A stretch of DNA of 64,000 nucleotides from Candidatus Woesearchaeota archaeon (GTDB lineage Archaea > Nanobdellota > Nanobdellia > Woesearchaeales > GW2011-AR9): contig JABHWJ010000033.1 of assembly GCA_018657845.1 (NCBI GenBank), forward strand, positions 12,834 through 76,833. The letters are read 5' to 3'. The position numbers and the translations under genes are program-made. The first letter of the stretch is position 1. Every line of letters starts with the position of its first letter. Shown here piece after piece: positions 3,468 through 61,402 of this stretch. The notes beneath the pieces were generated by a model. The model was not told the origin of the DNA. It made no database searches and worked only from the letters and a program-made list of their open reading frames with translations.

Positions 3468-6400
3468 TCAACCAACAATAAAGAATTGTTTATATGTGTA
3501 ATTATAAGGAGAATAAGAGAACTCGTATTCTTTTAACAAAACTTTCCTTGGATAATTTCTTTCAGTAATGATGGCTTGGATACTACCACGATTAGAATGG
3601 ATTGTTCCTTCCATAGGTATTAACAAAGAATCGTATTTTAGTTTCTTTATCATCTTTTCAGAGTATTTAATAATCTGATCATACAAATGTACTGGAGAAA
3701 CTTCACTTAAAATAGTGGAATTAGGTTGGATGGACGCAATTAGATATTTTTTTCCTGCCTCTTCAATAGTTCTATAAATTACCCCTCCACAAGCCTTAAA
3801 ATTATTGTCCCAGATAATCAATTGCCAGAAATCTGTCATGTTCCACAATTTATTATCTGAAGCTACACAAACTCCAAAATTATACATTGCTACAGAATGA
3901 GGGCGCTTTTTACTTAACATAAAAAGATATTTAGCACCACCCTTACCAGAAGATTGGTGGGAATGTTCAAATTTATTCATCTGTTTATGCATCTGGTTGT
4001 AATCTTCTCCTGTTAATTCTGAGAAAATATCGCTGATTAATTTCTTACTGATAGTTCCAGCTCCCTGTTGCTTTAACCAAACCTCAACATCTTGCCATTT
4101 AGATACTTGCCAATCTATTTTCTCAGCATAGAATCCATTCTTTTCCAGAATTAATTTTATTCTTACTTCTTTATCTTTCTTTTCAGACATCCATAAACCA
4201 AACAAGGTTTTAGCTAAACCAGCATACTTTTTTGGTTTCTTTACTTTTTCAATCAGTTGAGAGAACTTAACTTTATTCTTTTGGTAAGCAGTATCAATTA
4301 AAGTGGTAATCAAATCATTTTTTAATCTGTCACCCATCCATTCTTTATATTTCATTAAAGTTGAATGTTCAGCGTTAAATTCTGGCAAACCAGTTCCCGT
4401 GTTTACAGAATATTGATAAATTAAAGTTAAGAATGCTTTTCTTCTTTTCTTCAAAGTTTTGTTAGTAAAACTGGAAAGTAAAGCTAAACCTAATTTTTCT
4501 GGAATTAATGCTTTTTGGGGTTTAGAATTTATTTCGCTCACTGCTTCAATTAACATTTTCCAGGATTCATCGTTTAATTCTTCACCCGATTTTAAGGCAT
4601 AGCCTCCTCGAGAAATTTTTACTTCTTCTGGAGATATTTTATTTAGAACTTTTGGAATATCTATTTGTCTATCAGTTCTATTGTCATAAATTAGTTCATA
4701 TCTTCTCCTAGGGACAGTTAATTCTGGAGAGAAAACAGAATACAACATCCCAATGAGAAGTTTTGAGTCATATTCTTTTGTTAGCACTCCATTAAAAATA
4801 TCTTTTTGGATAGTTTTTAATTCTTTAAACATCCTTTCTAGATGAAGATGTTTCTCAGGATGATCTGAGGCCATAATTATTTTATATTCTTTATACACTT
4901 CAATTAAATCAACAGTTGAATTTTTTAAGAAAGGAATTAAATATTCTTTTTCTTTGCTTAAAGGAGTAGCAATGATATTTTCTTTAATTCCATTAACTAA
5001 TATATGTTGAAGAAAATCATGAGCTTTAAATTTACGTTCACTTAGAATTTTAATCAAAATTTTAATATCATCTTCTGTTTGAATCACTTGAGAGATTTCC
5101 CCATAACTTTCGAAACATAAAAATGAAGCAATTTTTTGACTTTTTAATGTTGGAAAAATCAAAAGATCAAATAGATCAATACCAAAATGATTGAGTAAGG
5201 GTTCTAACTTTCTTAAAGAATCATAAGTTTTTTCTTCATTACCATTGCAATAATCTTTAATTTTTGGAAAATTTTCAATTAAATAGGACCAGGATGCAGG
5301 ATCTTTTTCCAGTAGATATCTTAATGTAGAAATACCAGAGAAGAAAATATCCGGTATGTTTTTTTCTGCAGCTTGAGTCATTTTACAAACACCATAAACT
5401 ACTTGCGCCCAAGAAAGGATTCCTTTTTCTATTAAATTTTTAAATGAAGGAAGACCATAAAGTAAAATGGTATGGATAGTATACATGTTTTTTTCTGCAG
5501 CTTGAGCAATTTTACAATATCCATCAACTATTTGCTCCCAAGAAAGGATTCTTTTTTCTAATAATTCTTTTAATGAATTACTTGAATGAAAACCATCCTT
5601 AAAGATAACTTCTGCACCTTCTCCAGCAGCTTGAGCAATTTTAGGCAAGTCGTTAACTACTTGCTCCCAAGAAAGAATTCTTTTTGAAAAGATTCCTCTT
5701 TCTAGTAAAGCTTTATTAGAAAAAATCCCTTTTTCTAGTAAATCTTTAACTGAAAGAAGACCGCGCTTGAACATAGCTTCTGCATTTTTCCCAGCAGCTT
5801 GAGCCATTTCATTCAAATCATTCGGGTGCTGGGCTAAAAACCGAACATATTCTGGATATTCTTTTAATGGGAATTCCCACTTTTGAGTATAGCCCGTTTT
5901 ATATTTTTCAGGCAGCGCTTTATACTTCTTTAAAATTGCCATCCCCTCTTCTACTAAATTCTCTCTATCTTCTTCAGGCAGTCTTTTAATTACTTTCTGT
6001 GCTTTCTTCAAACTCACTTCTAAAGCCCGAATCCATTTCTCAACATCTTGAACTTGTTCTTCAATCTGTTTGATTAATTGCAAGAAAGCAGCATGGATTT
6101 TTTCTGCTTTTTCAGGATTATCTTTTTTTATTTTTTCTTCTAATTTTGCTTCGATGGTTGCTTTATCCAATTCTTCTTCTAATAAACCATTGTAGAAACT
6201 AGCATATTTTACTAGGTGGGCATGTTCAATCTCTAACTCCTTAGCAATTTCACGAATAAAATGAATAATTTGTTTTAAATGAAAATCTTTTTTTAAATGC
6301 CCTTCCATTTGTTGATGTACTTTTTCTATTTCTTCTTGATAAGTTTCTTCGAATTCTTCTCTAAATCTTTCTTCAAAACGATCGGCTCTTCTTTCTGCTC

Positions 6401-6578
6401 GGCCGATATAATGAACAAGGTGTACTGCTTTACGAAGTTTTTTCCGGTCAGCGTCTTTTTCCTTTTCAATCTCTTCTAATTTATTATATAATTCTTTGAC
6501 ATACTTATATTCAGCAGCCGCCCAATCAATAGCAAGAATCAAATCTTTACTCAACTCTTTTTTTGTAAACATAATCAA
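3468..6578 (-). CDS. Large (1036 aa) coiled-coil/repeat protein of unknown function
   Basis: Highly charged coiled-coil N-terminus. Internal ~40-aa tandem repeats ('...KIAQAAG/EKNAE..F..G..S...LLEKxILSWEQVV...', at least 4 copies). Nucleotide-level tandem repeat at 5361..5840. Confidence 0.6.
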   Translation of the reverse strand: MIMFTKKELSKDLILAIDWAAAEYKYVKELYNKLEEIEKEKDADRKKLRKAVHLVHYIGRAERRADRFEERFREEFEETYQEEIEKVHQQMEGHLKKDFHLKQIIHFIREIAKELEIEHAHLVKYASFYNGLLEEELDKATIEAKLEEKIKKDNPEKAEKIHAAFLQLIKQIEEQVQDVEKWIRALEVSLKKAQKVIKRLPEEDRENLVEEGMAILKKYKALPEKYKTGYTQKWEFPLKEYPEYVRFLAQHPNDLNEMAQAAGKNAEAMFKRGLLSVKDLLEKGIFSNKALLERGIFSKRILSWEQVVNDLPKIAQAAGEGAEVIFKDGFHSSNSLKELLEKRILSWEQIVDGYCKIAQAAEKNMYTIHTILLYGLPSFKNLIEKGILSWAQVVYGVCKMTQAAEKNIPDIFFSGISTLRYLLEKDPASWSYLIENFPKIKDYCNGNEEKTYDSLRKLEPLLNHFGIDLFDLLIFPTLKSQKIASFLCFESYGEISQVIQTEDDIKILIKILSERKFKAHDFLQHILVNGIKENIIATPLSKEKEYLIPFLKNSTVDLIEVYKEYKIIMASDHPEKHLHLERMFKELKTIQKDIFNGVLTKEYDSKLLIGMLYSVFSPELTVPRRRYELIYDNRTDRQIDIPKVLNKISPEEVKISRGGYALKSGEELNDESWKMLIEAVSEINSKPQKALIPEKLGLALLSSFTNKTLKKRRKAFLTLIYQYSVNTGTGLPEFNAEHSTLMKYKEWMGDRLKNDLITTLIDTAYQKNKVKFSQLIEKVKKPKKYAGLAKTLFGLWMSEKKDKEVRIKLILEKNGFYAEKIDWQVSKWQDVEVWLKQQGAGTISKKLISDIFSELTGEDYNQMHKQMNKFEHSHQSSGKGGAKYLFMLSKKRPHSVAMYNFGVCVASDNKLWNMTDFWQLIIWDNNFKACGGVIYRTIEEAGKKYLIASIQPNSTILSEVSPVHLYDQIIKYSEKMIKKLKYDSLLIPMEGTIHSNRGSIQAIITERNYPRKVLLKEYEFSYSPYNYTYKQFFIVG
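5361..5840. repeat. Imperfect ~125-170 bp tandem repeats (about 3.5 copies) inside the 1036-aa gene
   Basis: Recurring blocks 'tttttctgcagcttgagNcattttacaa...actacttgcNcccaagaaaggattcNtttttcta' read directly in the sequence. They are in-frame protein repeats, not CRISPR (no unique spacers). Confidence 0.6.
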
Positions 6579-6683: not shown

Positions 6684-7049
6684 TCATAATTCATACCATT
6701 TATCTAATTCTTCCTGAAACTTTAAAGCAGGAATATTTGAAGATAAGTAACCAACTCTTTCCCCCTGATCATAAGCGATAACAAAAGGGACACAATAGAC
6801 ATCTTCTTTACGAAAGATACTAAATAATCCCTCATTTTTATTATCTAAATAAACAGCATCAATTTCAAATAAAGATAATATCTCCTTCAAATCTGGATCA
6901 TCAACAAGATTTCCAATAAATGAGGTACAACAATCAACATTATCTTGTAGAACAAAAGCTAAAGTTCTTCCTTCACGAACAGATCTTCTAAATTCCTTTT
7001 CAGAATTAACGATGGTACATAATTTTTCGGCACCTTTAATAACAGTCAT
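6684..7049 (-). CDS. Thioredoxin-fold-like small protein
   Basis: 121 aa; 'VDCCTS' followed by a Trx-like C-terminal 'VPFVIAYDQGERVGYL' pattern; overlaps the downstream GNAT gene by 4 nt. Confidence 0.4.
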   Translation of the reverse strand: MTVIKGAEKLCTIVNSEKEFRRSVREGRTLAFVLQDNVDCCTSFIGNLVDDPDLKEILSLFEIDAVYLDNKNEGLFSIFRKEDVYCVPFVIAYDQGERVGYLSSNIPALKFQEELDKWYEL

Positions 7050-7492
7050 TTTAAACTAATCCCCCAATAGGCCCCATAAATATTTTCAAATTTATTTCTC
7101 TTAACCAAATCCAGCCCTTCTGTTGTAACCGGGTTACAAAGCAAATATTCAAATCCTTGTTTTTTAGAATTTCTTAATACTTCACTTAATACGGCACTAC
7201 CAATCCCTTTATTTCTTTTGTATACAGGTAATTCCATATTTAACAAATAAATAAGTTTATCTGGAGAAGACATTCTTCCCCCTTTCCAAAGAGTGTTAAT
7301 TACATTAATATTTTTCATCAAAGAAGTATTATTTTGAGAAGTTACAGAACCCAACAACACTTCCAAATTATCTTCCCCACAAGTTCTCCAAACAGTTCCA
7401 AACGCTAAATCAAATTGAAATTGGCTATATTTTGGCATAGTTTGTACTAAACAATCACCAAAATACCTAATCTCCATTCCCAAATCTTCCAT
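7046..7492 (-). CDS. GNAT-family N-acetyltransferase
   Basis: Acetyl-CoA-binding motif A 'VYKRNKGIGSAVLSEVL' (R/Q-x-x-G-x-G/A). Confidence 0.6.
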   Translation of the reverse strand: MEDLGMEIRYFGDCLVQTMPKYSQFQFDLAFGTVWRTCGEDNLEVLLGSVTSQNNTSLMKNINVINTLWKGGRMSSPDKLIYLLNMELPVYKRNKGIGSAVLSEVLRNSKKQGFEYLLCNPVTTEGLDLVKRNKFENIYGAYWGISLK

Positions 7493-7550
7493 ATTCTTAT
7501 TTGAAATGGTCTGGTTTATATTATTTTTTATATTTTAAAGAAAAAACAAC

Positions 7551-7823
7551 TTATTTACGTAGCTCATCAATAAAACGACCGCAACAAGTTATATAATCAA
7601 CATACACAGAAAAATAAATAGATGGTTCTGAAAAATCTCTTTGTATGTGGGTCATGATAGCAGTATGTGGAGTTACCCCTGCCACCATTTCTAAAGTCAT
7701 ATCACAACCCAAATGCTGAGGATCTATTCTTTTTTCATCAATTAAATCAAACATAAAGATCAATTGTTCCCTATTGATATATTCTGGAATTCCATGTTTT
7801 TCCATTAACTTTTTCAAAATCAT
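7551..7823 (-). CDS. Hypothetical 90-aa protein immediately upstream of the GNAT gene
   Basis: ORF only; its position matches an antitoxin-like partner, but no RHH or HTH motif was recognised. Confidence 0.4.
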   Translation of the reverse strand: MILKKLMEKHGIPEYINREQLIFMFDLIDEKRIDPQHLGCDMTLEMVAGVTPHTAIMTHIQRDFSEPSIYFSVYVDYITCCGRFIDELRK

Positions 7824-7858
7824 CCTTAAAATTCTAGAATTTATCGTTTTTATAAATA

Positions 7859-8791
7859 TTACCCTAAATTATCTAGGATATCATGGGCATTAGAAGAACT
7901 CAAGTACTTTCCAATTTCTTTATTTTCTGCCCTTAACAAAAACGAGGCCTTCAAAGAACTCTTCTCAGCATTACTAACTCTAGCGAACCTATCTGCTAAC
8001 ATCAGCCCATATGGATAACCTAAAAACACCGCATCCCTACTATTCTCCACTAAATAAGGCAAAACCTCCAAATTACCTTCAAACCTAAATACATGTTTTG
8101 CTAATGGGTGTAATTTAACAAAAGAAGTTTTATTATCAACAAAATAACTCCAACATCCAGGAGGACAAAGTTTATTCAATAAAATCATTGGATTATTCCC
8201 AGAAACCGTAAACAGCGAACAGCTTTTAGCTAAAGCACAAACTCCAGCACTTAACTTTCCTAAATATTTTTCTTCATTCCGATAACTTTTCTCTAAAGTT
8301 CCATCAAGAACAATAAAATTTGCCTCTATTGAAGAACCTAAACTCAATTCTGCAAATCTTCTAGCTATATTAGCTACTTTAGAAACAGAAGCCCTTTCTA
8401 CCCCTTTCTTAATTGTTATATCATTGGAAGATATTAACAAATCCTTCTCATCAATTGCCCGATCTCCATAAATTTTACTCTGATAAAATAATTCTCCTTC
8501 AATCCACTTTGCTCGAGTAAACAAATAGAATTCCTTTTTATAAGAATTTAATTTCTCTTGACCTTTAAATACCTGGGCAAAGATTCTAATGAAACTTAAA
8601 CAAAAGTTTCCGGTAGAAATAACCTCTGTCTGCCCTCCATCAACAAAAGCAACAGTTTTCTCCCCTTCTTTATCGTTAATTCCCTTAAAACCTTTATTCA
8701 ATTCAATAGTTCTCCCATTAAAGATAATCTTATCTTCAGAAGAAAAGCTATTCAGAACTTCCTTTATTTCCTTAGAGATTTGTTCAATCAT
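7859..8791 (-). CDS. NurA-like (RNase-H-fold) nuclease candidate
   Basis: Two hydrophobic-DG motifs, 'VAFVDGGQTEV' (~aa 50) and 'FIVLDGTLEKS' (~aa 160), spaced as in NurA catalytic motifs I and III; 310 aa; first gene of a 4-gene minus-strand operon. Confidence 0.4.
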   Translation of the reverse strand: MIEQISKEIKEVLNSFSSEDKIIFNGRTIELNKGFKGINDKEGEKTVAFVDGGQTEVISTGNFCLSFIRIFAQVFKGQEKLNSYKKEFYLFTRAKWIEGELFYQSKIYGDRAIDEKDLLISSNDITIKKGVERASVSKVANIARRFAELSLGSSIEANFIVLDGTLEKSYRNEEKYLGKLSAGVCALAKSCSLFTVSGNNPMILLNKLCPPGCWSYFVDNKTSFVKLHPLAKHVFRFEGNLEVLPYLVENSRDAVFLGYPYGLMLADRFARVSNAEKSSLKASFLLRAENKEIGKYLSSSNAHDILDNLG

Positions 8792-8852
8792 ATTATCTTT
8801 AAAGAACTAAATTCATTAAAAACATTTATGTGTTTAAAGATATAAAATCAGA

Positions 8853-9293
8853 TCATCTTTTTCTTTTGGCGTTTTTTTTAATAGTAGAATGATAAAGTCT
8901 TCTTGCTTCGTGTAATTGAACCACTCCATCTCCATTAATATCTGCATCTCTAAAGACTTTCTGATAACTTTTAGGATTAATTTTAAATTGATTCTTGCTC
9001 GATAAAAAATAATCTCCTTTTTTTGTTTTCCTTACTTTAATCTTCCCCGAATTTATTCCTTCGATCGTTCTCAAAATTCGCTTAACACTACTTTGGTTAT
9101 ACTGGTATGGTTTATATTTAGAAGGTCTTTCATTATTTTCTTGAACAGAATCATTTAAATTTTCTTCCCTAGGAAGTAAAGTATTATAATAATCACTAAT
9201 TGTCTTTTCTAGTCTTGAACACCCACCCATATTCGTAACCAAGATTACTGGAACCATATAAATTCCCACTTTATTAACCAATTTGTCTAACAT
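8853..9293 (-). CDS. Secreted or lipoprotein-like protein with an EF-hand/dockerin-type Ca-binding loop
   Basis: N-terminal hydrophobic segment ending 'NMGGCS'; 'DADINGDGVVQLHE' matches DxDxDG Ca-binding loops; Lys-rich C-terminus. Confidence 0.45.
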   Translation of the reverse strand: MLDKLVNKVGIYMVPVILVTNMGGCSRLEKTISDYYNTLLPREENLNDSVQENNERPSKYKPYQYNQSSVKRILRTIEGINSGKIKVRKTKKGDYFLSSKNQFKINPKSYQKVFRDADINGDGVVQLHEARRLYHSTIKKNAKRKR

Positions 9294-9299
9294 TTGAAC

Positions 9300-10106
9300 T
9301 TACCTCTTCAAAGATTCAAGCGCATTATCCAAGGCTTTGTCAAGACTATTATCTTTCTTAGGAACTGGTTTTGATTTGTAATCCACAGAAGGTTTTTTAG
9401 TAGCTTCATGTTTTTCCATCTTACTGTACAGTCTTGGCATCAAACCACGAAAATGTTTTTCAGTAAACTCATCATTAGTTGCGTGAAAAACTAAACGATG
9501 TTTTTTCCCTTGGTATTCTCTAATCTCAACTTCTTCGGGAGATCCATTTCCGTTACTATCAATAAACTTATACTTAAACTTTTTATCTGGAGATAATATA
9601 GAAATAAAACCATCTTTATCTGTTAAATAACTTTTCCCTTCATCTGCTGGCACTATGTAAGTTCCTTTTTGAACCATATTTTCAACATTTTCCAGGTGTT
9701 CATTAATCAGCTTTTCTCTGAAAGTTACAAACATGTCTTTGTAAACAGCACAACTCTTACCACTACAAAGCCTTTTTCCATTAACTTCTACAACATCAGG
9801 AACACCATCAGCTTGTTGGAAGTAATCACTATCATCGGACATTTTAATAGTATTACTTTGATGACGAACCATTATTGAAGCAGAAGGGTAGCCTTCTGCT
9901 GTGGGGTTCCCCTTAGCAATATAAAAAACTCTTGCCCTCTCATTTTTTTTCATATCATTTTTTAAAGCATCTTCTAATGCACCTAATACTTCGTCTGGTG
10001 TTTCTGACGCAGATAATAATCCAGGGGCAGTAACTGCTAATGTTCCAGCAACAAACGCAGTTCCCAATTTTTCTAAAAATCCTCTTCGATTCATTTTGAT
10101 TTCCAT
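9300..10106 (-). CDS. Tat-signal secreted protein of unknown function
   Basis: Twin-arginine motif 'MNRRGFLEKLGTAFVAGTLAVTAPGLLSAS' at the N-terminus. Confidence 0.55.
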   Translation of the reverse strand: MEIKMNRRGFLEKLGTAFVAGTLAVTAPGLLSASETPDEVLGALEDALKNDMKKNERARVFYIAKGNPTAEGYPSASIMVRHQSNTIKMSDDSDYFQQADGVPDVVEVNGKRLCSGKSCAVYKDMFVTFREKLINEHLENVENMVQKGTYIVPADEGKSYLTDKDGFISILSPDKKFKYKFIDSNGNGSPEEVEIREYQGKKHRLVFHATNDEFTEKHFRGLMPRLYSKMEKHEATKKPSVDYKSKPVPKKDNSLDKALDNALESLKR

Positions 10107-10108
10107 TT

Positions 10109-10498
10109 TTATTCTTGTTTTAGATTTTCATTAAACTTTTTCATAATTTCATACTGTGGCCAAGTTAGTGTGTCAATGTAAGTAGAGAATAGTTTTGTTT
10201 GTTCTTGGTTAAAAAAACAAACCTTCTTATCAGAAATATAATCTTTATCTTGCTTGTTTACAACAGCAACGATATCTTCACCGGAACTGGTTCTTTGTAT
10301 GTAACTTCCCAAATCTTTAAGTAGACTAAATAATGGCGATTCTTGTCTTAACCTTGCAAAAGTTCCCGGCCCGCTTTCTCTTTCAATTTCACTGAAAATT
10401 CCATAAGCATAAACTTCCGGACTTGAACCAGAACCCATCTCTAAAGCAGAATAATCTCCTTCTACATTTTCAACTTTCAATATTTTTAGTAATGTCAT
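10109..10498 (-). CDS. Hypothetical protein (129 aa), same operon as the secreted proteins
   Basis: ORF tightly spaced (2-3 nt) with its neighbours. Confidence 0.4.
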   Translation of the reverse strand: MTLLKILKVENVEGDYSALEMGSGSSPEVYAYGIFSEIERESGPGTFARLRQESPLFSLLKDLGSYIQRTSSGEDIVAVVNKQDKDYISDKKVCFFNQEQTKLFSTYIDTLTWPQYEIMKKFNENLKQE

Positions 10499-10501
10499 TT
10501 T

Positions 10502-10840
10502 TTATTTTTCCCCTAACATTCTTAATAATCCGTGTGCTCTTGCTTTTGATTCTATTCTTGAAGCGTAAGCTGCTTCAGAATCACTAAAGTTCCAATATTT
10601 TGGATGAATTTCTATGTTTGCAGTTTCTTCTAGCTTCTCAACTACTGTACTTAATTCTAAATTTTCTAAGAATTTTTTACCCTCAGAATTAAAGTAAGGC
10701 ATTACACCATTCTCGTATCCTAATTCTCTAACTGCTAATTTTTCTACAACATGATTCATATAAACAAATGCAGGAACTCTTCTAGTTATTCCAACTGTTG
10801 CATCTTCAGGGATTTGTTTTAAAATTTCTTTATAACTCAT
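10502..10840 (-). CDS. Hypothetical protein (112 aa), first gene of the 4-gene minus-strand operon
   Basis: ORF only; no motif recognised. Confidence 0.4.
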   Translation of the reverse strand: MSYKEILKQIPEDATVGITRRVPAFVYMNHVVEKLAVRELGYENGVMPYFNSEGKKFLENLELSTVVEKLEETANIEIHPKYWNFSDSEAAYASRIESKARAHGLLRMLGEK

Positions 10841-22136: not shown

Positions 22137-23894
22137 ATGAAAGCAAAAGAACTTAAACAAAAATATTTAGAATTTTTTAAGAATAAAAACCACATAATTA
22201 TCCCTTCTGCATCATTAATTCCAGATAATGACCCTACTGCCTTATTTACTACCGCCGGTATGCATCCTTTAGTTTCTTTTATCATGGGCCAACCTCATCC
22301 TTCTGGAAAAAGACTTGTTAATGCTCAGAAATGCCTCAGAACTCAAGATATTGATGAAGTGGGAGACTCTACCCATACTACTTTCTTTGAGATGTTAGGA
22401 AACTGGAGCCTTGGAGATTACTTCAAAAAAGAAGCCATTGAGATGAGTTTCGAATTCCTTACTAAAACTCTTAACTTTCCATTATCCCATTTAGCGTTCA
22501 CCTGTTTCGAAGGAGACAAAAACGCCCCTAAGGATGAAGAAGCTGCCAAGATCTGGTTAACATTAGGTGTGCCAAAAGAAAGAATTGCTTTTCTAGGAAA
22601 GGAAGATAATTGGTGGGGTCCGGTAGGAGACTCTGGACCTTGTGGACCAGATACAGAAATGTTTTACTGGGTTGGAGAAACTAACCCTCCAAAAGAATTT
22701 GATCCCAATGACAACAACTGGATGGAAATCTGGAATGATGTTTTCATCCAATATGATAAAACGAAAGAAGGAAAATTTACCTCATTAAAAAATAAAACAA
22801 TTGATACCGGTTTAGGTCTTGAAAGAGTCACCGCAGTATTACAAGGAAAGAAAACTGTTTTTGACACTGAACTATTTCAACCAATCTTTGAGAAAATAAC
22901 CCAACTAACTGACACTGAACCAAACAGAAAGAACATCACTTCTTACAGGATTATTGCAGACCATCTTAGGGCATCAGTTTTCCTTCTTGGTGATGAAAGA
23001 AAGATTACGCCGTCCAACGTAGACCAGGGTTATATCCTAAGAAGATTCATCAGAAGAACTATCCGTCATCTAAAAAATCTAGGCTTAAAAATAGAAAATA
23101 TTGATCTCGCCCCTTTCGCCAAGTTAATAATCAAAATGTATCAAGAAGAATATCCCCTTCTCAAAGAAAACAGCCAATTCATTATCGAAGAACTAAAAAA
23201 AGAACAAGAAAAATTCAAACAAACTCTTGAAAAGGGATTAAAAGAATTCAATAAAATGAGTAATAAAAAAGTCATCCCAGGAAAAGATGCCTTCCTTCTC
23301 TTCCAAAGTTATGGTTTCCCTCTTGAACTAACTGTAGAACTCGCTAATGAAAAAGGTATTAATGTTGACGAAGAAAATTTTCATAAAGAATACCAAAAAC
23401 ATCAAGAACTTTCTAGAATTGGTGCAGAGAAGAAGTTTAAAGGTGGCCTAAGTGAATCCTCTGAAGAAACTAAAAAGCTTCACACCACTACTCATTTACT
23501 CGCAGAAGCCTTAAGGAAAATCATATCTCCAGACATTAAGCAACGAGGAAGTAACATCACCGATGAACGATTAAGATTCGACTTCAATTTTGATAGAAAA
23601 CTAACTGATGAAGAAAAGAAAGCAATAGAGGAAGAAGTAAACAAGGTTATTCAACAAGGATTAGAAGTGAAACGAGAAGAAATGTCTCTTGACCAAGCAA
23701 AAAAACTTAAGGCCCAAGCCGAATTCGGATTAAAGTATCCGGATCAAGTCTCTGTTTACTTCATTGGAGACTACTCAATTGAAATCTGTGGCGGACCCCA
23801 CATCAAAAACACCAAAGAATTAGGAAAATTCAAAATTAAAAAAGAACAATCCAGTGCTGCAGGGATCAGAAGAATTAAGGCAGTATTAGAATGA
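22137..23894 (+). CDS. alaS: Alanyl-tRNA synthetase, unusually short (585 aa): catalytic, tRNA-recognition and minimal editing core
   Basis: 'FTTAGMHPL', 'HTTFFEMLGNWSLGDYFK', 'GPCGPDTEMFY', 'DTGLGLERV', and the editing Zn ligands 'HTTTHLL' (HxxxH) and 'CGGPH'. The protein ends ~30 aa after CGGPH. Confidence 0.85.
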   Translation: MKAKELKQKYLEFFKNKNHIIIPSASLIPDNDPTALFTTAGMHPLVSFIMGQPHPSGKRLVNAQKCLRTQDIDEVGDSTHTTFFEMLGNWSLGDYFKKEAIEMSFEFLTKTLNFPLSHLAFTCFEGDKNAPKDEEAAKIWLTLGVPKERIAFLGKEDNWWGPVGDSGPCGPDTEMFYWVGETNPPKEFDPNDNNWMEIWNDVFIQYDKTKEGKFTSLKNKTIDTGLGLERVTAVLQGKKTVFDTELFQPIFEKITQLTDTEPNRKNITSYRIIADHLRASVFLLGDERKITPSNVDQGYILRRFIRRTIRHLKNLGLKIENIDLAPFAKLIIKMYQEEYPLLKENSQFIIEELKKEQEKFKQTLEKGLKEFNKMSNKKVIPGKDAFLLFQSYGFPLELTVELANEKGINVDEENFHKEYQKHQELSRIGAEKKFKGGLSESSEETKKLHTTTHLLAEALRKIISPDIKQRGSNITDERLRFDFNFDRKLTDEEKKAIEEEVNKVIQQGLEVKREEMSLDQAKKLKAQAEFGLKYPDQVSVYFIGDYSIEICGGPHIKNTKELGKFKIKKEQSSAAGIRRIKAVLE

Positions 23895-23912: not shown

Positions 23913-24275
23913 ATGTTATCTAGAGAAACTTTAAAAAAAGTATTAAGAACTATCTTGGGCTACGATCCAAAAAAAGATCCCCGATTAGATTTCACCAACA
24001 TGTATGGGATATTAGAAGAACACCTAAATGCGGTTGAAGAAGAATTTTCTGAGGAAAAAAAACTTGTTAAGCTTACCAAACAGTATGGAAATAACATTAA
24101 CGCTGCAATTGAAGCTATTAAAAAAATTAGAAATGCAACGGAAGATAATAAACCTCAAGCCATGATAGAAAATCTTCCCATAATCAAAAACAATTTAAAT
24201 GAAGCTCATGGATTAACTTTATTATTAGAAGCAGAACTTAAAAAAATAAAGAAAGAAAGTAAATTCCTAGAATGA
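23913..24275 (+). CDS. Hypothetical protein (120 aa)
   Basis: ORF only; 4-nt overlap with the dph2 fragment. Confidence 0.4.
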   Translation: MLSRETLKKVLRTILGYDPKKDPRLDFTNMYGILEEHLNAVEEEFSEEKKLVKLTKQYGNNINAAIEAIKKIRNATEDNKPQAMIENLPIIKNNLNEAHGLTLLLEAELKKIKKESKFLE

Positions 24276-24514
24276 AACTAAACCTGCAACTAGAAAAAGC
24301 AATCGAACAAATTAATCAAGAACAAGCTAAAACTATTCTTATCCAATTACCAGATGGACTAAAACCAAAAGCAGAAGAAATTCAAAAAACAATCCAAAAA
24401 AAAACAGCAGCAAAAATAACTTTTTGGTCCGGATCTTGTTACGGGGCTTGCGATGTCCCCTTAGTATCCAATTTTGATCTGTTAATTCAATTTGGACATT
24501 CTGAGTGGCGTTAA
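24272..24514 (+). pseudogene. dph2: Truncated diphthamide-synthesis Dph2 (N-terminal 80 aa only)
   Basis: 'AKTILIQLPDGLKPKAEEIQKTI...SCYGACDVP...DLLIQFGHSEW' aligns to the N-terminal domain of archaeal Dph2 (~330 aa). The ORF stops after 80 codons and the remainder is replaced by the convergent gene 24511..25248. Confidence 0.65.
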
Positions 24515-25248
24515 TCCACCAAATACAATTTAGAATACATTCCTTTCATTTGACTAGGAACCACCCCAACAATCCATCTATTTTTTTTATTACCAGTAGT
24601 TTCAGCAAAATAATAATTCTTACCTCCTACTTCCTGATATGGTTGTCCAGGAAAGTCCCCTTCTACGGCAACAGCAATATGTCCAAATCCTCCTTGATTA
24701 ACTTTGGGATTTTCAACTTGTAACCAACTTTTTGGCCAAGGAATTATTCCAGGAATCACAATTAACCCGGTTTCAATCCCTCTAGATTTCAACAAAGAAG
24801 CATACAAGATAGAAACATCTTCACAATCACCTTTCCCATCACTTAAAGTCTTGCCAGGCTTACGAACATATTCCCTTAGACTCAACACTTCGTCCCAATC
24901 ATATTCTATTGTACCATTAACATAATCTAACAAAGCTTGAGCTTCCTCTTCTTTTGAATTACAATCTTCAGTTAACTTATCAGCTAATTCTTGTATCTTT
25001 GAATCATTATAATCTACAAAAGTAACATAATCATCTAAACCAAAATCTTCAGTTACATTACTATCAGAAACTGCTAGTATTGCCTCCAAATCAATATCTT
25101 GAACCATTGAAGTGTTGGCAGGCCAACCATAGATCATGGCTTCTTTTTTCTCAGGAGCCGAACAGTAACTTAACAAACTAACCAGCATAGTTGCCACTAC
25201 CATTTTTGTAGATGTTAGAAATTGACCAAAGAGAGGTCTCATTGACAT
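24511..25248 (-). CDS. Transglutaminase-like cysteine protease domain protein, with signal/TM anchor
   Basis: Cys-His-Asp core 'GKGDCEDVSILYASLLKSRGIE...GHIAVAV...'; N-terminal hydrophobic segment. Confidence 0.7.
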   Translation of the reverse strand: MSMRPLFGQFLTSTKMVVATMLVSLLSYCSAPEKKEAMIYGWPANTSMVQDIDLEAILAVSDSNVTEDFGLDDYVTFVDYNDSKIQELADKLTEDCNSKEEEAQALLDYVNGTIEYDWDEVLSLREYVRKPGKTLSDGKGDCEDVSILYASLLKSRGIETGLIVIPGIIPWPKSWLQVENPKVNQGGFGHIAVAVEGDFPGQPYQEVGGKNYYFAETTGNKKNRWIVGVVPSQMKGMYSKLYLVD

Positions 25249-29885: not shown

Positions 29886-31097
29886 TCACAATTCTCTTCT
29901 AAACATCTTACGTTTATACCTTCCCCCTGGTAACATCTCAGTTCTTGCTTCTACAAACTGTTGATAGTCTCTTGGTTTAGAAGATAGTTCTGATTGGGTA
30001 GATACTGAAGAATAAACTGGAGCACCAATCTCAACTGGTCTTTCTGCGCCCAAAGATGTTCCTAATGCAGAGATTAACCTGCCCAAGTCTCTTTCTCTTG
30101 GACTTACAGAAAGATTAAATAAAATGGCTTCACGGACAGATTCAGGAACACCTTTTCCAATCATTGTTTCTTCAGCCACATCAAAAATTATGGAATTCTC
30201 TCCTTCATTTGCAATTGTAGGTGCAACAATCATTCCTGTCGTTAAATAAAGATCAGTAGTAGTTTTTGAAAAAATATCACTTGGAATTGAAGAATCTTCA
30301 AAAAATGTTTCGGGAGCAAAATAGTCTAGAGTCCCAATCTTGGGCAGAGCATTTGCAAAACTAACTACAAAAGATCTCTCATTGGCTTCACGGAAAGAGA
30401 GCCTATACAAATCAGATCCAGTAACTCGTGAATTACCAAAATCCGTAACTGTGGTTCTTTGTCCATCAGACATAATATTCTTAGGAGTTATATCTCCATG
30501 AATAACGTTCTCTTTGTGAATTTTTTGAAGAGTTAATGCTGAATCATAAGATATTTTCAATGCAGATTCTAATGTTAATCCTTTCTCTACTAAATCATAA
30601 GTTGGTTCTCCTGGGGCTTCATCCATTTCTGTCGACATGAAAATATATTTATCAACGACAGTAAATTTCCTATCACGATATGAAACTACTCCTTCAACAC
30701 CCTGTAATGATCGTAAAATTACTCCTTCAATAATTCCTCCCACTACATGTAAATGGTCTGATTTTGAAAGTGTGAAATCAATCGACTGATCACCTTCTTG
30801 TAACCTATAACTCTTCCCACCAAGATGGTCTATCCTAACATTGTGGTGTACTCCCTCAAGTGGAACTAATGGTTTTTTACTAAATGCTAAAACTTTACGT
30901 ACGCCACCATAAGGACTTTTAGTTATTACACCAAACGAACCGGAATCACGACATTGTCCAAATACAGTTTCAAATGTTCTTTGATCTATAAGTTTAGTTG
31001 GATCAGGAACTGTATACCTTACTCCATGTGACTTAACTAAGGATCCTATTTCAGTTTGTTGTAAACCAGATCTTGTCATTTGATATTTCTTCCTCAT
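29886..31097 (-). CDS. Eukaryotic-like protein-kinase-fold protein (atypical ePK) with a novel ~170-aa N-terminal domain
   Basis: Catalytic loop 'VIHGDITPKNIM' (HxD...N) and 'VTDFGNS' (DFG motif) in the C-terminal half. Confidence 0.6.
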   Translation of the reverse strand: MRKKYQMTRSGLQQTEIGSLVKSHGVRYTVPDPTKLIDQRTFETVFGQCRDSGSFGVITKSPYGGVRKVLAFSKKPLVPLEGVHHNVRIDHLGGKSYRLQEGDQSIDFTLSKSDHLHVVGGIIEGVILRSLQGVEGVVSYRDRKFTVVDKYIFMSTEMDEAPGEPTYDLVEKGLTLESALKISYDSALTLQKIHKENVIHGDITPKNIMSDGQRTTVTDFGNSRVTGSDLYRLSFREANERSFVVSFANALPKIGTLDYFAPETFFEDSSIPSDIFSKTTTDLYLTTGMIVAPTIANEGENSIIFDVAEETMIGKGVPESVREAILFNLSVSPRERDLGRLISALGTSLGAERPVEIGAPVYSSVSTQSELSSKPRDYQQFVEARTEMLPGGRYKRKMFRREL

Positions 31098-31210: not shown

Positions 31211-33406
31211 CTAAGCACCCAATGATCCTTCACTCAAACCTTTTCTGCTAACAATTTGGTTCCGAACTTTATCCTGTAATTCTCCAGGTAATCGTTCAAA
31301 GCTCTGATCCATCAAAGAACTGTTTCCACGTCCACCCGTAGCACTTCGTAAGTCATTACTCCAACCAAACATTTCTGCAACTGGCATCTTTGCTTGAATA
31401 ACAGTTATGTCTCCTTCTTGGTTCATGTCCAATAGCTGTCCTCTTTTAGAACTAACCAATTTAGAAACTTCTCCCATGTGGACATTAGGTGTTTCTATCC
31501 TCAGGACTTGTAATGGTTCATACAAGATAGGTGCAGCCTGCATCATAGCTCCCTTGATACTTTCTCTAACAGCAGGATAAATCTGAGCTGGGCCTCTGTG
31601 AATAGTGTCTTCATGTAACTTCACATCTTTCAAACGCACAACTACATTTACACACGGCTCTTTAGCTAATGGGCCAGCTTTCATAACATCTTCAAAAGTA
31701 TCTAAGACCATTTCCATAACCTCATTAATATGAACAACCCCTCTTGTTTCCTCGAGTATGATATTTCCATTGATCATTCCTTTGACATTACCTGCACTTT
31801 TTGCATCCCAACCAATACTTCTAAAAGCCGCCACTACTGTTTCGTCCTTTTTCTTGTATCTTCCTTGGGAAATCTTATTCTCCTTAATTATCTCAGCAAT
31901 ATCTTCTGGCATTGGCTCAACAATCATGTAAAATTTATTGTGTTTATTTGGAGATTTTCCTTCTATTTCAGGACTTTCCTTAGTAATAGTTTCTCTATAT
32001 ACCACGATTGGTGAAGAGGTTTTAATTTCAACTCCTTTTTCACTTCTAATTCTGTTTTCAATGACTTCTAGGTGTAATTCACCCATACCATGCATTAAGT
32101 GTTCTCCTGTTTCTTCGTTAATCTCAACAACAATAGTTGGATCTTCTTTTTGTACTTGACGAAGAACTTCAATTAATTTAGGTAAATCTGCAGGTTTAGT
32201 AGCTTCAACTGCTTTGGTAACTACTGGATCAAAGATATGTGAAATCTTCTCAAAAGGTTCTGCTTTTCCTCCAGAAGTAACAGTTTCTCCTGGCATTCCT
32301 GATTTCAATCCCGCCACCCCAATAATATTTCCTGCAGGGACATTGTCAACAATTTCTCTTTTTGCCCCATTGTAAACATATACTTGTTGAACCCTTCCAG
32401 GAGAGTTAGCCATATTCAAGAAAACTTCTTCTCCCTTTTTCATTGTTCCACCAAAAAGTCGTCCAGCAGCAATTTCTCCCGCTTGTGGATCAACAACAAC
32501 TTTAGTGATTACAAAAAATAATCGTCCATTAGGATCACATTCGATCAAAGATTTTCCTTCGGCACTTTCTAAATCTCCATGCCATAATCTTGGAATTCTA
32601 TACTTTTGGGCTTGCACTGGGTCAGGGCTATGTTCAATAACCATGTCCAAAACTACTTCGTGAATTGGTGCCTTCTTGGCCAAAGCTTTAACTTTTTCTT
32701 TAATCTCTTCTTCAGTCCCACTATAGGCATCAATAATATCTTTGAAAGAAACTCCTTTCTTCTGCATGTAAGGTAATGAAATTCCCCAATTATGAAAAGC
32801 ACTTCCAAAAGCAACTGTTCCTTTTTCAATACTAACTTGCCATTTTTCTTTATACTCTTCTGGTGCAACACTTTTAATCATCCGATTTACTTCAGTAATA
32901 TATTTAACAAATCTCTGTTGCATCTGTTCTGGAGTTAACTTTAATTCCTTGATTAATCGGTCAGTTTTATTGATAAACAAAACTGGCCTAACCAGTTCTT
33001 TTAGAGCTTGTCTTAATACTGTTTCAGTCTGTGGCATTGCTCCTTCAGAAGCACAAATTAAAACGATTGCTCCATCTACTGCCCTCATTGCTCGAGTTAC
33101 GTCTCCACCAAAATCAACGTGACCTGGAGTGTCAATTAAATTAATTAAAAATTCTTTTTCATCTACATTATGGACCATAGAAACGGATGCAGAATCGATA
33201 GTAATTCCTCTTTCCTGTTCGTCTTCATGAAAATCTAAGTTTCTTGCCTTACCTGCAAGCTCTTCACTCATCATTCCAGCTCCTGCTAATAAATTATCAG
33301 AAAAAGTTGTTTTTCCGTGATCAATATGTGCACAAACCCCAATATTTCTAATCTGTTCGGGACTACCTGCAAGTCTCATTACCTTATCTGTCATTTTCTC
33401 TGCCAT
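31211..33406 (-). CDS. fusA: Translation elongation factor 2 (aEF-2)
   Basis: 'NIGVCAHIDHGKTT', 'DTPGHVDF', and the diphthamide-site region 'HEDTIHRGPAQIYPA'. Confidence 0.95.
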   Translation of the reverse strand: MAEKMTDKVMRLAGSPEQIRNIGVCAHIDHGKTTFSDNLLAGAGMMSEELAGKARNLDFHEDEQERGITIDSASVSMVHNVDEKEFLINLIDTPGHVDFGGDVTRAMRAVDGAIVLICASEGAMPQTETVLRQALKELVRPVLFINKTDRLIKELKLTPEQMQQRFVKYITEVNRMIKSVAPEEYKEKWQVSIEKGTVAFGSAFHNWGISLPYMQKKGVSFKDIIDAYSGTEEEIKEKVKALAKKAPIHEVVLDMVIEHSPDPVQAQKYRIPRLWHGDLESAEGKSLIECDPNGRLFFVITKVVVDPQAGEIAAGRLFGGTMKKGEEVFLNMANSPGRVQQVYVYNGAKREIVDNVPAGNIIGVAGLKSGMPGETVTSGGKAEPFEKISHIFDPVVTKAVEATKPADLPKLIEVLRQVQKEDPTIVVEINEETGEHLMHGMGELHLEVIENRIRSEKGVEIKTSSPIVVYRETITKESPEIEGKSPNKHNKFYMIVEPMPEDIAEIIKENKISQGRYKKKDETVVAAFRSIGWDAKSAGNVKGMINGNIILEETRGVVHINEVMEMVLDTFEDVMKAGPLAKEPCVNVVVRLKDVKLHEDTIHRGPAQIYPAVRESIKGAMMQAAPILYEPLQVLRIETPNVHMGEVSKLVSSKRGQLLDMNQEGDITVIQAKMPVAEMFGWSNDLRSATGGRGNSSLMDQSFERLPGELQDKVRNQIVSRKGLSEGSLGA

Positions 33407-48538: not shown

Positions 48539-48544
48539 AAAAGG

Positions 48545-48632
48545 AGCCCCCGCCGAGATTTGAACTCGGGATCTCCGGTTATCCGTCTTGAGAGATACAA
48601 GACCGACGCATTAGCCACTATGCTACGGGGGC
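48545..48632 (-). tRNA. tRNA-Thr (anticodon TGT) with a 15-nt intron at the canonical 37/38 position
   Basis: Reverse complement: acceptor GCCCCCG/CGGGGGC, D-arm GCATAGTGGCTAATGC, anticodon stem TCGGT/ACCGG with loop CTTGTA[intron TCTCTCAAGACGGAT]A, T-arm CCGAGTTCAAATCTCGG. Confidence 0.7.
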
Positions 48633-61313: not shown

Positions 61314-61402
61314 TGCCCTCACGAGGACTCGAACCCCGGTTACAGGCTTTCTGCTTTTTCTTCAACCGCAAGCCTGTGTCCTATCCACTAGACGATAAGG
61401 GC
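61314..61402 (-). tRNA. tRNA-Arg (anticodon GCG) with a ~17-nt intron at position 37/38
   Basis: Reverse complement: acceptor GCCCTTA/TGAGGGC (with G-U), D-arm GTCTAGTGGATAGGAC, anticodon stem CAGGC/GCCTG with loop TTGCGG[intron]A, T-arm CGGGGTTCGAGTCCTCG, discriminator A. Confidence 0.65.

Follow-up and report, generated by a model that had tools for sequence, protein, structure and literature searches.

The N-terminal gene of a predicted split diphthamide synthase Dph2 in a Woesearchaeota archaeon

Dph2 is a radical-SAM-type [4Fe-4S] enzyme that acts on elongation factor EF-2, to whose diphthamide histidine it attaches the 3-amino-3-carboxypropyl group from SAM. The unsplit archaeal form is a homodimer (P. 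horikoshii, 3LZC/3LZD; Ca. Methanoperedens, 6BXM; M. smithii, 6Q2D), in which a single chain of ~330 residues provides three cysteine ligands; for the P. horikoshii protein (PhDph2) Cys59, Cys163 and Cys287 have been identified as the ligands of the [4Fe-4S] cluster (PMC11048331). Genes that encode the N-terminal and the C-terminal domain of Dph1/2 separately have been described in several DPANN genomes (Narrowe et al., 2018, PMC6143161), and Parvarchaeota, Pacearchaeota, Woesearchaeota and Altiarchaeota are among the lineages in which the split has been reported (Dombrowski et al., 2019, PMC6349945). The eukaryotic Dph1-Dph2 heterodimer likewise consists of two different polypeptides, but Dph1 and Dph2 are full-length paralogues with a cluster of their own in each, whereas in split Dph2 one chain is distributed over two. 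Split genes for reverse gyrase and tRNA synthetases have been found in Nanoarchaeum equitans and other DPANN archaea (cited in PMC6349945), and here, too, informational-pathway genes of reduced genomes are present in two pieces; the proteins concerned are different, however, and no intein or RNA-level joining has been seen in split Dph2.

We have analysed a stretch of 64 kb (hereafter the window), in which an 80-aa dph2 gene is found together with the following features:

23913..24275, plus strand: upstream 120-aa ORF, no Pfam or NCBIfam match, not part of Dph2
24272..24514, plus strand: dph2-N, the stand-alone N-terminal piece of split Dph2, 80 aa, identified by profiles and a structure model
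24511..25248, minus strand: transglutaminase-like gene, 245 aa with a hydrophobic N-terminus, Transglut_core match with E 6e-10
31211..33406, minus strand: EF-2, diphthamide loop HEDTIHRG, codon of the target His603 at 31598..31600

A protein identical to the 80-aa product is on record under the locus tag HOC13_03930, with Candidatus Woesearchaeota archaeon as its source, and as the published split names the Woesearchaeota, the gene is a member of the known case; split Dph2 in this lineage is thus already known and published. The phenomenon is the same as that described for DPANN Dph1/2 (PMC6143161, PMC6349945), with a stand-alone N gene in the window and a separate C gene in relatives. The details added here are the position of the break at ~83-90, inside the first domain and after the GHS strand, the distribution of the ligands, one and two, between the pieces, a conserved neighbourhood of the C piece, and a distance between the halves that ranges from adjacent to more than 10 kb. 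We consider it likely, at a probability of roughly 85%, that the 80-aa ORF is the gene for the N-terminal subunit of a two-gene Dph2, the C-terminal piece of which would be encoded elsewhere in the genome.

Identity and family of the N-terminal piece

The 80-aa ORF is the N-terminus of Dph2, as the sequence-only reading had recognised, and both profile and fold place it in this family. PF01866 (Diphthamide_syn) is matched over profile positions 1-56 of 302 with 40.8 bits against a gathering score of 33.2, NCBIfam TIGR00322 with an E-value of 6.9e-19, and a custom Dph2 profile of 330 positions, built from 34 full-length sequences, over positions 1-83 with an E-value of 2.6e-29. The solved Dph2 chains 6q2d_A (E 7e-13) and 6bxm_A have been matched at their residues 7-84, which marks the region that the piece has in common with the unsplit archaeal enzyme. 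In the AlphaFold model of the N piece (pLDDT 84) a helix is followed by a strand, a second helix and two further strands. When aligned with solved Dph2 structures, the model fits their ~75 N-terminal residues with a TM score of 0.78-0.83 and an rmsd of 1.4-1.6 Å, and its top Foldseek matches are the Dph2 chains 6bxm, 6q2d and 3lzc. A further feature in common with unsplit archaeal Dph2 is the Cys-Asp motif that holds the first [4Fe-4S] ligand, as Cys60 of the N piece (codon 24449..24451, in YGACD) aligns with Cys59 of the P. horikoshii protein. The ORF differs from a complete enzyme of three domains, ~330 residues and three cysteine ligands in that it comprises ~80 residues and carries one of the three cluster ligands, Cys60; its score of 60.7 bits with the archaeal Dph2 equivalog TIGR03682, of which it matches positions 2-63 of 308, lies below the cut-off of 202.8 bits.

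Stand-alone N pieces are widespread. At least 120 protein clusters of 75-107 aa carry one, and the best 120 of 287 homologues all have a length of 75-107 aa, an identity of 53-83%, and an origin in Woesearchaeota or Nanoarchaeota. When 1.84 billion cluster representatives were scanned exhaustively with HMMER, most of the proteins obtained had 75-130 aa, and full-length Dph2 appeared only lower in the list, with ~35-47% identity. In a scan of one genome per species, the N-piece gene has been found in at least 585 GTDB species genomes; the related loci carry Woesearchaeota or Nanoarchaeia titles, and the close relatives all have the ~80-aa form. The match to Dph2 stops between profile positions 80 and 87, most often at 83 (86 of the 86 related loci scanned, 92 pieces overall). 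Among 60 aligned N pieces, G29, C60, D61, G75 and H76 are invariant, and the consensus C-terminus GHSEWR is also that of the window's product, which is followed by the stop codon 24512..24514. The 80-aa dph2 is a conserved stand-alone gene and an ordinary feature of its lineage, not a broken gene.

The surroundings of the N piece vary. In other lineages Spt5 (SecE-Spt5) lies upstream and a gene for a HAD hydrolase or a DUF202 protein downstream, whereas in the window the N piece is flanked by alanyl-tRNA synthetase (AlaRS) and the transglutaminase-like gene; a tblastn survey of 80 related species loci has matched the latter in one locus and AlaRS in three. A conserved SecE-Spt5-dph2N synteny near EF-2 had been an early impression and has been dropped, because it is seen in only four to six of the 80 species loci, and for this reason no functional claim is derived from gene order. 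Directly upstream, the stop codon of the 120-aa ORF overlaps the start of dph2-N by 4 nt (ATGA), and this overlap suggests that the two genes may be co-transcribed and translationally coupled. The 120-aa ORF (23913-24275, plus strand) has been kept in other assemblies of the same organism.

C-terminal pieces and contigs with both halves

The closest unsplit Dph2 proteins, P0197 and its relatives, belong to a clade whose named members have been annotated as Diapherotrites. With the C-terminal 262 residues of P0197 as query, the protein database has yielded mostly full-length proteins and three C-only proteins, the Met of which is located at profile position 87-90; a profile of these three has in turn retrieved a family of C-terminal-only Dph2. 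Its members comprise 217-250 residues, have their initial Met at profile position ~90, typically with the opening sequence M-E-x-[LV]-F-[IV]-P-x-K-Y-K, and where named are annotated as Nanoarchaeota, Nanoarchaeia or Parvarchaeota; one of them is a 'histidine synthase subunit' in NCBI. The residues C76 and C207 (in GQVLGC and NTACPR) are invariant in 45 aligned C pieces and align with Cys163 and Cys287 of P. horikoshii Dph2. With the last position of the N pieces at ~83 and the first of the C pieces at ~90, hardly any sequence is lacking between the halves. 'Short' Dph2 proteins of ~283 aa have been rejected as C pieces, since they are compact unsplit enzymes that cover profile positions 23-313. 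The neighbourhood of the C piece is conserved (L087, L088, L089 and L175-L177, around position 10001): a gene for a GCD14/PCMT-like methyltransferase adjoins it on the opposite strand, and downstream follow KsgA (RrnaAD), a PF01877 RNA-binding protein and DUF655-Rpb4-L21e, usually with SRP54 beyond.

In JGI metagenome contigs, which have been scanned with the C-piece profile, 80 loci have been obtained, and in six of these an N piece is present on the same contig and strand as the C piece; because the sequences of L168 and L169 are identical, the six loci represent five organisms. The N piece is located upstream in all of them, directly in L168/L169, with a spacer of 125 nt, and at a distance of 3.5 kb in L094 (contig of 723 kb), 4.8 kb in L104 (692 kb), 5.5 kb in L106 and 8 kb in L098. 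The N pieces of these two-half contigs are only 40-46% identical to that of the window. That the break point is the same in all cases suggests that the gene was split once in an ancestor, after which the halves may have drifted apart.

The intervals between the halves show features of their own. Two ORFs of ~95 aa without a family match and one large surface-type protein with MopE-like motifs are found between the halves in L094 (6045-10681) and L104 (4858-10696); the large protein has 871 aa in L094 and 1343 aa in L104, where it also contains Ig-like domains. This arrangement suggests that unrelated genes have been inserted into a formerly adjacent N/C pair in these two loci. The spacer of L168 (9895-10020, identical in L169 from 7370) has a GC-rich core with 57% GC compared with 28% for the locus, and its folding has given a minimum free energy of -38.9 kcal/mol, corresponding to a z-score of -6.0 against shuffled sequence; searches for an Rfam family, a tRNA or a further copy of the spacer in any fetched locus have returned none.

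Rival readings of the short gene

For the abrupt end of dph2 the sequence-only reading had offered a truncation by the convergent gene, and had named three possible explanations: diphthamidylation that was lost recently, a split gene with its other part elsewhere, or a problem of the assembly. Of these three, the split gene is the sole one that fits, as C-only genes share contigs with N pieces in relatives and the split has been published. A full-length dph2 cut by insertion or rearrangement of the transglutaminase-like gene, i.e., a recent truncation or pseudogene, would agree with the layout of the junction, which had been described correctly: dph2-N ends 4 nt inside the minus-strand gene, the stop codons of both genes overlap, and this neighbour is lineage-specific, with a match in one of 80 related loci. 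However, the gene stops at the ancestral position of its family, where it also ends in at least 585 species that have other genes beside it, and as a gene of the same length occurs beside quite different genes, the neighbour did not truncate dph2-N; the stop codon 24512..24514 thus marks the ancestral end of a conserved small gene. In addition, the catalytic residues are strongly conserved, and a search of the window with the 34-sequence Dph2 profile, with all filters off, has found no decayed remnant of dph2 beyond 24514 in any frame. A truncation is thus highly improbable, and the transglutaminase-like gene is an unrelated neighbour and not the cause of the short dph2. An artefact of assembly or binning at ~24510, for which the abrupt end of homology is the one argument, is hardly credible: the stretch 24172..24800 is base-for-base identical in two independent assemblies from other samples, whose contig names suggest different assemblers, so that the junction is not a misassembly, and the genes around dph2-N are arranged in a JGI contig as they are in the window.

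It is more difficult to judge whether the N piece is an orphan, i.e., whether the C half and with it the synthesis of diphthamide have been lost and the 80-aa protein has been re-used or has not yet decayed. Several results would agree with this. With P. horikoshii Dph2 as query (sequence checked against PDB 3lzc), phmmer and tblastn have detected no further Dph2 sequence besides the 80-aa ORF in six frames of the 64 kb window, in line with the earlier statement that no remainder of dph2 follows the ORF. A C piece has not been found in the 8.8 kb left of the window either, while on the right side three other contigs end near the window's right end. The genes that flank C pieces (RadA, the GCD14-like methyltransferase, KsgA, PF01877, DUF655, Rpb4, L21e) do not occur in the window, and no Dph5 or Dph6 is present among the 20 mid-size window ORFs that have been scanned. 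EF-2, the substrate of Dph2, retains its diphthamide site, as the earlier note had pointed out, with the loop HEDTIHRGPAQ, but some archaea without dph genes also keep the target His (PMC6143161). These archaea replace the loop Arg of EF-2 (PMC6143161), whereas in the window this Arg is retained; the loop fits the diphthamide motif HxDxxHRG as defined by Narrowe et al. (PMC6143161), the second loop, SPNKHN, is also present, and the distance between dph2-N and EF-2 amounts to 7 kb. Against an orphan also speaks that the ORF is intact and follows the consensus to its last residue, including the invariant Cys-Asp and Gly-His motifs, and that the three other assemblies examined show dph2-N at an identical position with its neighbours unchanged. 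The ~73 kb covered have to be compared with a genome of probably ~1-2 Mb, as judged from relatives' contigs of 1.56 and 1.84 Mb, and the halves lie apart in close relatives as well: a search of 86 related loci (1.25 Mb) for a C piece beside the N piece has found none, and in the loci of all 80 closest species none lies within 10 kb of it. A recent loss of diphthamidylation, moreover, does not fit a conserved ~80-aa gene and the existence of C-only genes in relatives. We consequently regard an orphan N piece as unlikely. Its stricter form, in which the C half is truly absent and the 80-aa Cys-Asp/Gly-His protein has been kept for a role of its own while His603 stays unmodified, appears somewhat less probable still; if true, it would describe a DPANN archaeon that lacks diphthamide and has put a fragment of Dph2 to a new use, for example the binding of EF-2 or an Fe-S partner.

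The predicted two-chain enzyme and further features of the window

According to the preferred reading, a Dph2 in two pieces, an ancestral dph2 of ~330 aa would have been cut once in the clade, behind the GHS strand of the first domain and within the loop that follows it. The model of the unsplit P0197 places the break in the loop between the strand 74-78, which ends in HFGH, and the strand 90-93 (TIFVP), so that two helices and three strands of the first domain fall to the N piece. This piece would thereby keep strands 1-3 of the domain and the first ligand, Cys60 of the Cys-Asp motif, while the C piece, of about 226-237 aa, would take over at the following strand (M-x-x-[LV]-F-[IV]-P) and supply the two remaining ligands together with domains 2 and 3. 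In the 2010 crystal structure of Dph2 each domain reportedly consists of a parallel sheet of four strands, and in that case the second polypeptide would provide the strand that completes the first domain. The two polypeptides would most likely associate non-covalently and rebuild the active site, with the consequence that the cluster would be held by cysteines of two chains. A split intein or another mode of joining has been rejected, since the whole of the N piece is Dph2 sequence and the conserved strand that comes next is where the C pieces begin; no intein-like sequence has been detected in either half. The two-chain complex would probably dimerise like unsplit archaeal Dph2, and the dimer is predicted to modify His603 of EF-2. 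Taken from sequence and models, the product of dph2-N is thus probably part of a two-piece enzyme, with non-covalent assembly, activity and the presence of a C-piece gene in this genome as its predicted properties.

In such an enzyme the [4Fe-4S] ligands would come from two polypeptides, and the first domain from two chains. For annotation, a short match to PF01866 in Woesearchaeota or Nanoarchaeota must not be taken as a pseudogene or as loss of diphthamide, and PF01866 is unfit as a single-copy marker of completeness in DPANN archaea, a point made by Narrowe et al. (2018, PMC6143161), who have warned against the use of Dph1/2 as a single-copy marker.

Some further features of the window have been noted apart from Dph2. 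The alanyl-tRNA synthetase at 22137-23894 (plus strand) has only 585 aa and scores 825 bits with the short model PRK01584 and 603 bits with the bacterial alaS model, compared with 229 bits against a cut-off of 745 for the archaeal model. A Ser/Thr protein kinase gene (PF00069, 403 aa, 29886-31097, minus strand) is located between EF-1alpha and EF-2 and hence inside the S10-EF1A-EF2 cluster, an arrangement that is also present in other assemblies of the same organism. An ORF of 1036 aa at 3468-6578 (minus strand) and eight smaller ORFs on the same strand at 6684-10840 have almost no Pfam matches, with the exception of one faint match to NurA. Two tRNA matches of ~89 nt, at 48543-48632 and 61314-61402 (both minus strand), have been found by Rfam, whereas ARAGORN has called the former with an odd anticodon of 4 bases and has missed the latter; both are probably intron-containing archaeal tRNAs.
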